Shown one piece after another: positions 7,142 to 10,828 of a DNA stretch of 64,000 nucleotides (positions are counted from its first letter, which is position 1; each line of letters starts with the position of its first letter). The notes beneath the pieces are model-generated. The model was not told where the DNA came from, did no database searches, and was given only the letters and a program-made list of their open reading frames with translations. Location of the stretch: positions 11,826 through 75,825 of the forward strand of contig JAFNIT010000002.1 in assembly GCA_017601345.1 (NCBI GenBank), written 5' to 3'. The stretch comes from Candidatus Brockarchaeota archaeon (GTDB lineage: Archaea; Thermoproteota; EX4484-205; JAAOZP01). A program made the position numbers and the translations under genes.

Positions 7142-7699
7142 CTATGGTATGAATACTGCTGCTGCGACAACAGTTGTCCATAAACCATCCTTATTGCCTA
7201 CTGCAGACTGTGTTATGCTCATCGTCTTAACCCTCTTACCGCTTATCTTCCATATCTCCTTCTGCTCATCCCAGCTCTTGTCTATGTCGAATGGAACGCC
7301 CAGGGTAGAGGCCAGCATGAATGCCGCAAGGTCCTCAGCATAATCTCCAGCCTTCTTCTCAGTCTGGCCGAAAGAGTGGTGCTCGCTCAAATAGCCGTAG
7401 CTCTCATCGTCAAGCGGCTTAGCCATGCCTATTGAAGCTGCTATAAGCCTATTGGGCTCATTCGTCTCATTCCTAGCCAGGACAACGAATATTACCTGCC
7501 CGGGTTTAAGCTTGCTCAAGCCCTCTTCCCTACTTATCACCTTGCAACCAGGCGGGATTATGCTAGAAATAGGCACGAGGTTGAACTGAGCTATGCCAGC
7601 ATCCCTCAAAGCTATCTCGAACGACGCAAGCCTTTCCCTGTGAACACCAACGCCCTTTGTGAAGAAAACTTCCCTCGGTACGAAGCTGAATCCTTCCAT
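7142..7699 (-). CDS. pdaD: Pyruvoyl-dependent arginine decarboxylase
   Basis: [13 protein letters not shown]...[25 protein letters not shown]; likely start is ATG at 7699, not 7858. Confidence 0.9.
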
Positions 7700-7795
7700 T
7701 CTTAGTCTATTGAGAGAGAATTCGAAAAAAGGTTTAAGATAAAGTTTTCCCCAGACGGTAAAGCGTATTAGGGAGCTTCTCCAAAGAGCTTTGAA

Positions 7796-8791
7796 ATGAT
7801 TTCGCAGAACAAGGTTAGGATAATGATAGTTGGATGCGGCGGAATATCTTTCATGCATGTCAACAACCTGATTAAGCTAGGCAATGCCGAGATAGTTGGG
7901 TTATGCGATGTTAATCCCGGGAACACAAAGAGGCTTAAAGACCATTTCCCCATGCTACGGGCAGTAAGGGAATATAGTGATTACAGAGAGATGTACGACT
8001 CTACTGAGGCCGATGCTGTCCTAGTGTTGACGCCGCATACACTGCACTTTAACCAAGCTATGGATGCTTTAAAAAAGGAGATGCACGTGCTGGTTGAGAA
8101 ACCCATGACTACCAGGGTTGAACACGCTAAGAAGCTTGTTGAGAAAGCGTCGGAGGAAAAAAGGATTTTAATGGTCTCCTACCAGAGGCATTACGAACCT
8201 CCGTTCAGATTCATAAAAGCGAGGATTGAGTCAGGAAGCATTGGAGAAGTTCAATTCGCAACATCCCTACTGACCCAAGAGTGGATGAGGCTAACCAAGG
8301 GGACATGGAGGCAAGACCCCGAGCTGAGCGGCGGCGGAGAGCTTATGGATAGCGGGAGCCATATCGTTGATTTCATCCTTTGGTCAACAGGGTTAAAACC
8401 CTTGGAAGTATTTGCCCAAGTCGACTACAGGGGGTGTAGAGTGGATATCAACACCTCGCTTACCGTCAGGTTCTCAAACGGAGCCCTAGCCAGCGTAAGC
8501 ATAGTTGGAGATGCTCCCCGTTTCGAAGAATACCATGCGATCTACGGCACGCAGGGGGCGATTTTCTACGATAACGGTAAGATTAGGCTACTGGATGCTG
8601 AAGGATCTTTTTCAACGACGCCCTTAAAAATGCCTTTTGAACCCAGTAATCCTGATAGGAATTTCGTAATGAGCATACTAGGGCTTGAAAAGCCTGAGTC
8701 ACCGGGCGAGTGCGGCCTAAGGGTAATAGAGCTTACTGAAGCAGCTTTGGAAAGCGCTAGGCGCGGTGAGAAAATAAGCCTCCGAGAGTAA
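7796..8791 (+). CDS. Gfo/Idh/MocA family oxidoreductase
   Basis: VGCGGIS Rossmann motif, [18 protein letters not shown]. Confidence 0.9.
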
Positions 8792-8809: not shown

Positions 8810-9448
8810 ATGCAGAGGTTCGACCTCCACATACATACTTTCTTCTCCAGAGACTCGTGGATAGACCCTAAGCTCCTCCCTAAAGTAGCTGAGTCAAGGG
8901 GTTTAAGGGGCTTTGCTATCACAGACCACAATCGTTTCGGAGCACATAGGATGATAGAAGCAGGGAGCATGCTCGTAGTACCTGGCGTGGAGATAAGGAC
9001 TAACGTTGGAGACTTGATCGCCCTATTCATACAGGAGCCTGTTGACTCCAGTGATCCTTTTGAAATCCATGATGTAGTAAAGTCGCAAGACGGCGTTTTG
9101 ATAGCGGCCCACCCCTTCGGATTTCCAAGGGTACAGAGAAGCGCAAGTAAAAAAATCTATGAGCTCTTGGATGGTGTTGAAGTAGTGAATGCGAGGAATA
9201 TTCTCCGAGGACAGAACGAGAAGGCCTTGGAACTTGCTAAAAGGCTTGGGAAGGCAGAAGTGGGCGGTAGCGACGCGCACACGATGCGGGAAGTTGGAAG
9301 AGCATACACTTTGGCGGACGCCTCAAGCCTAGAGGAGCTGCGTTCAGCAATAAAGAGAAAGAGTACTTGTGGATCCGGGATGTTGAGCACGCCTCTGGTG
9401 CACCTGGCTAGTTTTGCTGCAAGAATTATGCACATTATCTCGCATTAG
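8810..9448 (+). CDS. PHP-domain metal-dependent hydrolase
   Basis: DLHIHT, AITDHN, GVEI, AHP and GGSDAH motifs. Confidence 0.9.
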   Translation: MQRFDLHIHTFFSRDSWIDPKLLPKVAESRGLRGFAITDHNRFGAHRMIEAGSMLVVPGVEIRTNVGDLIALFIQEPVDSSDPFEIHDVVKSQDGVLIAAHPFGFPRVQRSASKKIYELLDGVEVVNARNILRGQNEKALELAKRLGKAEVGGSDAHTMREVGRAYTLADASSLEELRSAIKRKSTCGSGMLSTPLVHLASFAARIMHIISH

Positions 9449-9497: not shown

Positions 9498-9505
9498 AAA
9501 AAAAA
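9498..9505 (-). terminator. Oligo-T archaeal terminator candidate
   Basis: T8 on the minus strand just after the small ORF stop. Confidence 0.45.
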
Positions 9506-9522
9506 TAAGGGGGTGAAAAGTC

Positions 9523-9588
9523 TCAGCACTTACCCTTACTCTTCTTAGATTTACCCTTACTCTTCTTAGATTTTTTCTTCACTGCCAT
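9523..9588 (-). CDS. Small lysine-rich peptide MAVKKKSKKSKGKSKKSKGKC (21 aa)
   Basis: ATG at 9588 to TGA at 9523; built on a perfect 21-nt tandem duplication; TATA-like TTTATG about 25 nt upstream and T8 run 18 nt downstream. Confidence 0.55.
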   Translation of the reverse strand: MAVKKKSKKSKGKSKKSKGKC

Positions 9589-9652
9589 TTTTTCAAAAGA
9601 ATTGATGCTGAACATAAACTTAAACTTTTTGTTTTTTAACGTTTTGAAAAAA

Positions 9653-10828
9653 CTAGCAAGGAGTTTCAGTTAATGCGTCGAACGTTTCAATAAAAGCTTC
9701 CTCCATTCCAACAGGTATGACTCCGGAAGCAGCTACGCTGTGACCGTCTCCAAAACCACCGTGTTTACTGCAAGCCTCCGGTAGAACTCTTGATAAAGGA
9801 GGCCTAGAACCGTTTTCAATCATGCTCTTCAACTCTGACGGGGCTCTCGCAGAAACCTTCACATAGTCTTTCTCGAGAGAACCGTAGCCGGGGATATCCC
9901 TAGGCATCTTCATGAAGCCCAACAAGTATTTACTACTATCTACGAGCCTCTGGTAGCTTAAGTAAGAGGTGAAGCTGCCGAGCACTTTGCTCCCCATGTT
10001 CTTAAAGAAATCACGAGAGTCAAACCATTGAATATTATTCCTCTCGCCCAAGCCCTCTCTAGCTATTAGAGCCAACAGAGCCTTGTTAGCCTTCTTCCTC
10101 TCCTCCTCTAAGGCTTCTGAAAACTTCAGCATTTCAGACGTAAAGCCACTCGTACATGCTTCAAGGGCCTTTTCAACACCGCCGCGGTAATACCCTACTG
10201 AAGCAAGTATTGTAAGTATTTGCGAAGCCCTGGTCCTCGACAGCATAAAGCCTTCAACAGTAACTTTGAAATCTTTACCAGATTCTTCTAAAACTCCTTT
10301 CTCCAAAGCATCGTCTAAAGCAAGCTTGTTCAACCCTAAGGGTAACCCCGGTACTTCAACAGAGCCTATTAAAGCCAGGTATGAGAACCTACTAAGCTTC
10401 TCGTCGACGCTCTTCGCGAAGAAGTAAGCTACTGTGGAGGCTGAAGCATCCCTCTCCCCTCTGTATCCATATAGCTCAGGGTTGATGTTGAAAACATTAC
10501 TTTTGACTGTCAGCTCAGTATCGTGATGATCAATAATAACTGCTAGACTATCCTTATCAATAAGATCTCCTATCCTCTTAACGTGGGCTGAGCCAATGTC
10601 GGTGAAAACAGTAACCCTATAGCGGGACAATATTTTTTCAAGAACCTCCGGAAAAAGCTTATCTAAACATATAGTCTTGACAATGTAGCCCATCTTTTCA
10701 AGAGCTGCCTTAGTCAGAGCTGCGGAGCAAATGCCATCCGCCTCATCGTGATGTATTAAAACAGCATCTCCAACTTTTTTCCTCAGGGCTTCTATAGCCT
10801 TCTCCACGTTTGCCTTTAGTATCTCCAA
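9653..10828 (-). CDS. DHH family phosphoesterase (RecJ-like, DHH plus DHHA1)
   Basis: HHDEADGI, FTDIG, IIDHHD, VSAR...GDGHSVAASG. Confidence 0.85.
   Translation of the reverse strand: MEILKANVEKAIEALRKKVGDAVLIHHDEADGICSAALTKAALEKMGYIVKTICLDKLFPEVLEKILSRYRVTVFTDIGSAHVKRIGDLIDKDSLAVIIDHHDTELTVKSNVFNINPELYGYRGERDASASTVAYFFAKSVDEKLSRFSYLALIGSVEVPGLPLGLNKLALDDALEKGVLEESGKDFKVTVEGFMLSRTRASQILTILASVGYYRGGVEKALEACTSGFTSEMLKFSEALEEERKKANKALLALIAREGLGERNNIQWFDSRDFFKNMGSKVLGSFTSYLSYQRLVDSSKYLLGFMKMPRDIPGYGSLEKDYVKVSARAPSELKSMIENGSRPPLSRVLPEACSKHGGFGDGHSVAASGVIPVGMEEAFIETFDALTETPC

Follow-up and report, generated by a model that had tools for sequence, protein, structure and literature searches.

A conserved micro-gene predicted to encode a lysine-rich, cysteine-ended peptide in one genus of Brockarchaeia

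Results

The locus and its features

The stretch of DNA analysed here, referred to as the window, is 64,000 nucleotides long and belongs to a genome assembly of 1.18 Mb with 43% G+C and an estimated completeness of 77%. In the genome collection used, the Brockarchaeia are a class with a single order and 26 species, placed within the phylum that holds the Thermoproteota; 17 of these 26 species, hot-spring archaea, belong to the genus of the window genome. The micro-gene described below occupies a gap of 204 nt between a DHH gene and a PHP gene, with the following features:

9653..10828, minus strand: upstream neighbour, a DHH/DHHA1 RecJ-family protein of 391 aa (context, outside the micro-gene)
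9613..9640, minus strand: promoter, composed of a purine-rich BRE AAAAACAAAAAG and a TATA box TTTAAGTT, from the alignment of 17 orthologous loci
9635-9618, minus strand: invariant promoter core AAAACAAAAAGTTTAAGT, 18 nt, identical in 17 species
9589..9612, minus strand: TATA-to-ATG spacer, ending in a conserved TGAAR directly before the ATG
9523..9588, minus strand: micro-ORF of 21 codons plus stop, encoding MAVKKKSKKSKGKSKKSKGKC, 11 Lys
9588-9586, minus strand: start codon ATG of the micro-ORF, read from the sequence
9530..9573, minus strand: perfect, in-frame tandem duplication of 21 nt, (SKKSKGK)x2
9526..9528, minus strand: codon TGC of the C-terminal Cys, followed by the stop codon TGA at 9525-9523
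9498..9522, minus strand: 3' untranslated region and terminator, with ACTTTT (T4 at 9519-9516), a pyrimidine-rich stretch and T8 at 9505-9498
8810..9448, plus strand: downstream neighbour, a PHP-domain phosphoesterase of 212 aa, convergent (context only)

The original prediction, made from the letters of the window, had pointed to an ORF running from 9588 to 9523 on the minus strand and encoding a peptide with 11 Lys that ends in Cys; this ORF was found in the sequence and in the ORF list. The list gives the same frame as 30 aa (9523..9615) owing to an upstream in-frame ATG at 9615. The 30-aa version was rejected: its ATG is located in the conserved block just 3' of the TATA box and, in the relatives, it either lies in another frame or runs into a stop. 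The peptide of the micro-ORF without its initiator Met is AVKKKSKKSKGKSKKSKGKC.

Tandem Repeats Finder recovered the perfect in-frame duplication of 21 nt that had been claimed (9530-9573, period 21, 2.1 copies, 100% matches, consensus TTACCCTTACTCTTCTTAGAT). A BRE/TATA-like element upstream and a T8 run after the stop are also present as described: the sequence AAAAAG-TTTAAG-TTTATG is located at 9630-9613, and TTTAAG begins 36 nt before the ATG.

A gene of the polyamine pathway, coding for a pyruvoyl-dependent arginine decarboxylase, was found at 7142-7858 on the minus strand, 1.7 kb from the micro-gene. Its ORF carries an N-terminal extension of 59 residues, which lies outside the Pfam domain and overlaps a GFO/IDH/MocA neighbour; the true start is probably an internal Met.

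Conservation of the micro-gene in the genus

Orthologous loci were located in 40 relatives using the DHH protein as anchor, and the DNA 3' of its stop codon was read. One copy of the micro-gene was found in each of the 17 genus genomes, between the RecJ-like DHH gene and the convergent PHP gene. The DHH proteins of these genomes are only 68-88% identical, yet the micro-gene is kept in all of them. In the MAFFT alignment of the whole spacer across the genus, the micro-gene unit appears as an island of conservation: the promoter core is the best-conserved part of the spacer, and the stretches between the DHH stop codon and the promoter and after the T run are unalignable. Each ORF of the genus opens with ATG-GCN and is followed on its 3' side by ACTTTT and a T6-8 run; this oligo-T run of 6-8 was found 20-30 nt past the stop codon in all species.

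A pattern blind to the reading frame (ATGGC-N4-AARAARAAR-N18-48-AARTGYTRR, any spacing allowed) gave exactly one match each in 14 of the 17 genus genomes, and the reversed pattern, used as a control, gave zero matches in >660 genomes. The micro-ORF is the only ORF of its kind in the 1.18-Mb genome; the window genome contains no paralogue and no second copy of the 18-mer promoter core. A scan of metagenomes with the promoter core followed by ATGGC, in which nothing else of the ORF was specified, yielded 19 contigs, and the micro-gene is present on 13 of them.

The absence of a conserved frame, start and stop in relatives had been named beforehand as the outcome that would speak against a gene; all three were found to be conserved. 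The variation in repeat number that had been predicted was also observed, with orthologous peptides ranging from 14 to 23 aa.

Promoter and terminator

The distance from the start of the TATA box to the ATG was 32-36 nt in 17 of 17 species. From the usual position of the archaeal TATA box, transcription is predicted to start 2-6 nt upstream of the ATG, and the predicted mRNA would be effectively leaderless. The promoters of 30 tRNA genes of this genome were found to consist of a purine-rich GAAAA(N) followed by TTTTAAA, TTTAAG or TTTATA approximately 30 nt before the RNA; the promoter of the micro-gene, AAAAAG-TTTAAGT, has the same canonical form. The view of the locus as an unannotated small gene, equipped with expression signals of its own and practically leaderless, is supported. 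The micro-gene also supplies, for an uncultured phylum, a clean unit of near-leaderless promoter and terminator.

The peptides and their terminal cysteine

The 17 genomes and the 13 metagenome contigs yielded 16 distinct peptides of 14-23 aa, among them MAAKKKAKKKTKKTTKKC, MATKKKSKKSKAKKSKKC, MAEKKKSKKTKAKTKKSKTKKC and MAVKKKSKKSKAKSKKSKSKRVC. The peptides start with MA(A/V/T/E)KKK; about half of their residues are Lys, separated by the small spacers S, T, A and G, with no acidic or hydrophobic residues and essentially no Arg. The two species nearest to that of the window carry the same two repeat units, already diverged: SKKSKAK-SKKSKGK.

Cys is the last residue in 14 of the 16 distinct peptides. 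Of the 17 genomes, 16 have TGT or TGC directly before the stop (TGA, TAA or TAG), as do 11 of the 13 metagenome contigs, and the residues that precede the Cys vary (GKC, KKC, RVC, KTC). The Cys codon was lost in two lineages of Brockarchaeia, in both as a stop codon, and no other residue substitutes for it (TGT to TGA, then TAA in genome G003). In the first Cys-less variant, MAAKKKAKKKAKKKK, the Cys codon is replaced by TAA in G003 and by TGA on a related metagenome contig; in the second, MAKKKAKKKKTPKK, a TGA-TGA begins at the Cys codon. Selenocysteine at this position was considered and rejected: the 3' region contains no conserved structure, and the occurrence of both TAA and TGA at the same codon in one lineage argues that TGA is a true stop. 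Judged from this pattern of retention and loss, the terminal Cys is under selection, yet dispensable in two lineages.

The retention of the Cys in 14 of 16 peptides while the residues before it vary, and its replacement by nothing other than a stop, could mean that the thiol is the working group of the molecule. According to this explanation the peptide would be a gene-encoded cationic thiol: the polylysine part would localise it to DNA, RNA or acidic proteins, and the Cys, with a low pKa, would act as a scavenger of radicals or oxidants, as a metal buffer or as a redox sensor. The existence in Patescibacteria of look-alikes with several C-terminal Cys (see below) points in the same direction. 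We consider this explanation quite unlikely, however: two lineages live without the Cys, and no redox or oxygen-defence genes are linked to the micro-gene at this locus.

It had also been proposed that the terminal Cys could be lipidated. A peptide targeted to the membrane by its polybasic stretch and by a lipid on the Cys would be strikingly similar to the processed hypervariable region of K-Ras4B (KKKKKKSKTKC-farnesyl); archaea have membranes rich in anionic lipids and an ample supply of isoprenoid donors. This part of the original prediction was not sustained. The peptide failed the tests for prenylation and lipoprotein motifs: nothing follows the Cys, and the residue before it is K, V or T in all variants that have it, so that there is no CaaX, CC or CXC motif; the peptide has no signal peptide, hydrophobic segment or lipobox, and its only Cys is C-terminal. 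The loss of the Cys in two lineages would abolish anchoring and, to our knowledge, no archaeal enzyme prenylates a free C-terminal Cys. Membrane targeting appears extremely improbable.

Evidence that the ORF is translated

In 14 genus genomes the start-to-stop pattern had lengths of 57, 60, 66 and 69 nt, each divisible by three, and the gaps inside the aligned ORFs were of 3, 6 or 9 nt only, evidence that is weaker than usual because AAG-type repeats can slip in threes even in non-coding DNA. In the first nine codons, which are unambiguously aligned, the variable columns were distributed over the three codon positions as 2/2/7. As last sense codon the orthologues use TGT as well as TGC, and each of the three stop codons occurs.

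The choice of codons was also found to be restricted. The 17 orthologues contain 175 Lys codons and a single Arg codon, in a genome in which Lys and Arg are about equally frequent (K 6.4%, R 5.7%) and in which the main Arg codon, AGA/AGG, is one transition away from AAA/AAG. AAG makes up 84% of the Lys codons in the ORF and 55% in the long genes of the genome; this bias fits an avoidance of slippery poly(A) tracts.

Candidates for a known or structured non-coding RNA were looked for and rejected, as all searches were null. No match to Rfam 15 was obtained for the whole window at gathering thresholds, and permissive settings gave only chance-level matches (E 0.5-9) between 9300 and 9800. RNAalifold produced a consensus fold of -0.45 kcal/mol with 6 weak pairs and no covariation, and the single-sequence fold, compared with shuffles, had a z-score of -1.29. 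No tRNA or tmRNA was found within the window.

It could still be argued that the locus is untranslated, either as a small purine-rich non-coding RNA or as a conserved pair of promoter and terminator enclosing an incidental ORF: conservation is higher in the promoter than in the ORF, and AAG repeats leave all frames open and slip by threes. These points are set against the joint conservation of the ATG, the MA start, the Lys-only pattern, the variation at third positions, the final TGY and the three stops. There is also no Rfam match and no conserved structure, and the analogous bacterial ORFs carry strong Shine-Dalgarno sites. We regard an untranslated locus as very unlikely.

A second explanation accepts translation but not a product: the ORF would be regulatory, sensing lysyl-tRNA or polylysine stalling, or it would control antisense read-through into the PHP gene. 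The ORF does resemble attenuator leaders in that it is short, contains 10-12 codons for one amino acid and precedes a U-run, and base pairing between the purine-rich ORF and the pyrimidine-rich 3' end is possible in the window genome. No co-oriented gene follows, however, the next feature being the 3' end of a convergent gene, and no alternative hairpins are conserved. The preference for AAG over AAA argues for smooth translation and not for stalling, and the conserved terminal Cys and MA start are left unexplained. We know of no attenuation of the leader-peptide kind in archaea. The probability of a regulatory ORF is accordingly considered low.

The conserved start, frame and stop, together with the codon-position bias, place the micro-ORF among protein-coding genes, and we find it very probable that it is translated. 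On the evidence of these sequence comparisons, the micro-gene is real, conserved, under coding-type constraint and restricted to a lineage.

Distribution and look-alike ORFs

Nine genomes representing the other three families of Brockarchaeia gave no match with the strict pattern, with the peptide profile or with a pattern of relaxed start; in these families different genes are located 3' of the DHH orthologue. As judged from these genomes, the micro-gene is confined to one genus of Brockarchaeia.

In a sample of 401 genomes of the phylum, the sole other in-frame match was a singleton in a genome of another family (G377), an ORF of 17 aa, MAKKKKASKKKGSKKKC, located in a long intergenic region (L046, 1501-1554) and preceded by its own TATA, a TTATAAAT box 33 nt upstream. 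None of 40 relatives carries it.

The pattern scan was extended to 185,579 species genomes, in which 101 stretches matched. Among the 80 of these 101 matches that were listed, most were the N-terminal parts of ordinary proteins (ribosomal S11 and L11, for example), and a few were complete look-alike micro-ORFs, from Nitrospirota, Nitrospinota, Patescibacteria and Aenigmatarchaeota. The Nitrospirota ORF, MATKKKAAKK(A/S)(T/A)KKGKC, occurs in three related species with synonymous differences and a GGGGGTGA Shine-Dalgarno site, and it is followed by two further polylysine ORFs of 17-18 aa, MATKKAKKAKPAKKAKKR and MATKKKAATKKATKKKK, each behind GGAGGTGA. Among 41 relatives, the first ORF of the three is present in those three species only. 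The Nitrospinota look-alike, MATKKKAVKKTAKKSTKKC, lies behind AAGGAGGTGA; the one from Aenigmatarchaeota, MAAKKKTTKKTTKSKC, is a singleton absent from relatives; and those from Patescibacteria, MAKKKKVKKVGKAKKSKKCCGKC and MAAKKKKKNKKLCPCCGCAPCKC, have several C-terminal Cys. The clear ribosome-binding sites of the bacterial look-alikes support the translation of ORFs of this type. For peptides of such low complexity homology cannot be demonstrated, and the look-alikes seem to have arisen independently, at the level of genera, as inventions of one type of product.

Several of these loci showed additional features. The triple cluster of Nitrospirota (MATKKKAAKKATKKGKC, MATKKAKKAKPAKKAKKR, MATKKKAATKKATKKKK) was found on contigs CAKKSE010000105 (L054), JACPZO010000136 (L060) and MHEK01000001 (L096), at about 4030-4370 of L054 on the strand of the micro-ORF; the species are of high GC, each ORF has its own Shine-Dalgarno site of the GGAGGTGA type, and only the first ends in Cys. 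In Patescibacteria, MAKKKKVKKVGKAKKSKKCCGKC (L102, 5132-5300) is followed by a second ORF, MAKKKKKVVKKKKVVKKKRK, and MAAKKKKKNKKLCPCCGCAPCKC comes from Nealsonbacteria (L127, 3501-3572); the Cys clusters of the Patescibacteria ORFs resemble metal-binding tails fused to a polycation. Lys-rich, Cys-ended micro-ORFs of 17-24 aa were also observed on four phage-like IMG/VR contigs: MAKKKKAAVKKVTKMDAKKKKTKC (L202) and MATKKKPAPKKMPGKMPMKKC (L204) lie behind Shine-Dalgarno sites, and MATKKKCKKCGKMKCKC (L207 and L216) has no evident one.

No family of Pfam, even at E<=10, or of NCBIfam matched the peptides, and seven of them (five Brockarchaeia sequences, one of them the 30-aa extension, and two Patescibacteria sequences) were absent from a set of approximately 15 billion predicted proteins. 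No description of such a peptide family was found in the literature. With 14-23 codons, the micro-gene would rank among the shortest conserved free-standing genes known from archaea, and it was missed by every gene caller.

Discussion

A possible ribosomal micro-protein

A tiny basic peptide encoded by a stand-alone gene could be a component of the ribosome, and such proteins have repeatedly been missed by annotation. The peptide would then fill a groove of the rRNA as a lineage-specific analogue of eL41, bS22, bL37 or bTHX. Such a role would agree with the size and charge of the peptide, with a gene that stands alone and with a canonical promoter that is strongly conserved, and no eL41 gene is recognisable in the window genome.

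Identity with eL41 itself was rejected. The original prediction had stated that the peptide is not L41e and, indeed, there is no sequence similarity between the two; a tblastn match of the M. jannaschii L41e on contig C9 turned out to be an out-of-frame artefact inside another gene. A scan of the 17 genus genomes with PF05162 gave nothing at the locus and nothing over the cut-off, a result to be read with the observation that this model stays below its cut-off in control archaea too. Spurious L41e tblastn matches were also produced by contig C21, in which a simple repeat at about 480-660 translates as (RW)n/(CW)n; this repeat is probably a microsatellite of the (TGG CGT) type at the contig end.

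A different ribosomal protein is also not favoured by the data. Gain and loss of repeats has given peptides with lengths between 14 and 23 aa, which have essentially no Arg and no aromatic residues, whereas the known micro-proteins of the ribosome are of fixed length with specific R/W/K sequences. The micro-gene is found in one genus only, and sister families with the same ribosome are without it; there is, in addition, no Pfam or NCBIfam match. Because the length drifts by in-frame gain and loss of repeats, a role based on charge and not on stereospecific contacts is preferred over a fixed pocket of the ribosome, and we regard a ribosomal peptide as unlikely.

A proposed free polycation

The reading we prefer, to which we give roughly even chances, is that of a free polycation coating DNA or RNA in the manner of a histone H1 tail or a protamine, and produced from a free-standing, single-copy micro-gene. 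The canonical BRE/TATA promoter would direct the synthesis of an almost leaderless transcript of approximately 100 nt that stops at the oligo-T terminator, and its translation would give a peptide of 14-23 residues. The mature peptide, of approximately 20 residues and a charge of about +11, would be a disordered, diffusible polycation. Its contacts with DNA and/or RNA would be dynamic and non-specific, much as those of a protamine, of a long polyamine or of an H1 tail freed from its histone. Through the thiol at its end, two molecules may be joined reversibly by a disulfide, which would double the valence, or the peptide may be attached to a partner.

From the sequences we infer that the peptide is made in vivo, what its Cys does and that it binds nucleic acid; the last of these is our best guess, from the composition only. 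Lys binds phosphate more weakly than Arg, and the use of Lys only suggests either dynamic, reversible binding or a modification specific for Lys. A modulatory role of the Cys, such as disulfide dimerisation, or a thiol tethered to nucleic acid, would fit the pattern of its loss.

Several observations weigh against a polycation of this kind. By tblastn, the window genome was found to encode a histone and two Alba proteins, and no Cren7 or Sul7d; there is no obvious gap among the chromatin proteins and, since these genes are already present, the peptide would add to them and not replace them. Nothing links the peptide to DNA in preference to ribosomes, membranes or polyphosphate. The RecJ-like and PHP neighbours are nucleic-acid enzymes, but this linkage may be plain synteny. 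Finally, the Cys is replaced by a stop in two lineages and so is not indispensable.

A broader proposal, which we consider speculative and rather unlikely, is that the look-alikes and the Brockarchaeia peptides make up a polyphyletic class, as yet unannotated, of ribosomally made oligolysine micro-proteins that act as genetically encoded "polyamines", with a Cys-ended subtype that is redox-switchable. Members would typically be 13-25 aa long and start with MA-x-KKK, and the class would range over Brockarchaeia, Aenigmatarchaeota, Nitrospirota, Nitrospinota, Patescibacteria and some viral contigs. In the redox-switchable subtype, formation of the disulfide dimer would raise the charge from +11 to +22 and turn a weak, dynamic counter-ion into a strong condenser or protector of DNA or RNA; alternatively, the Cys might serve as an antioxidant thiol tethered to DNA.

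If the Brockarchaeia peptide is made, hot-spring archaea and, apparently independently, several bacterial phyla would encode free oligolysine polycations. These would represent an overlooked part of the charge balance of the nucleoid and of RNA, beside histones, Alba and polyamines.

Comparison with known systems

The attenuator leaders hisL, pheL and trpL also consist of an ORF of 14-30 codons dominated by one type of codon, with a U-rich terminator next to it. The micro-gene differs from them in being archaeal, in having conserved peptide ends, and in its lack of a co-oriented operon downstream and of a conserved terminator/antiterminator pair; it does not belong to this group, because the downstream gene is convergent and the hairpins are not conserved.

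The polybasic-prenyl anchor of K-Ras4B, a run of Lys with S/T spacers ending in Cys, looks nearly identical to the micro-peptide, which differs from it in having neither a CaaX box nor an attached protein domain. The ribosomal proteins eL41 (25 aa), bS22 (33 aa), bL37 (24 aa) and bTHX (26 aa) are of the same size class as the micro-peptide, are also highly positively charged and encoded by stand-alone genes, and have likewise escaped annotation. They have a fixed length and specific R/K/W sequences across phyla, whereas the micro-peptide has essentially no R and no W, is variable in length and is found in one genus.

Protamines, such as the mammalian P1, and the adenovirus core peptide mu (19 aa) are likewise tiny polycations, which condense nucleic acids. 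The cysteines of protamine P1 cross-link molecules through inter-protamine disulfides, and the disulfide dimerisation of synthetic Cys-oligolysine DNA condensers can be likened to the role proposed for the Cys of the micro-peptide. Protamines and mu are rich in arginine, eukaryotic or viral, and belong to a specialised stage; the micro-peptide, in contrast, uses lysine only and is encoded by a cellular chromosomal gene.

The C-terminal tail of histone H1 and the chlamydial Hc1/Hc2 proteins (PF07382) resemble the micro-peptide in composition only, as no match to the H1-like/Hc2 profile was obtained among the Pfam and NCBIfam searches. The micro-peptide reaches only a fifth to a tenth of their length, lacks a globular domain, ends in Cys and comes from a free-standing archaeal gene. 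The likeness consists in a sequence made up almost wholly of K and A/S/T/G spacers, with Arg all but absent, in disorder and low complexity, and in the change of length by in-frame repeats; dynamic, non-specific binding to DNA is the action presumed to be common to all of them.
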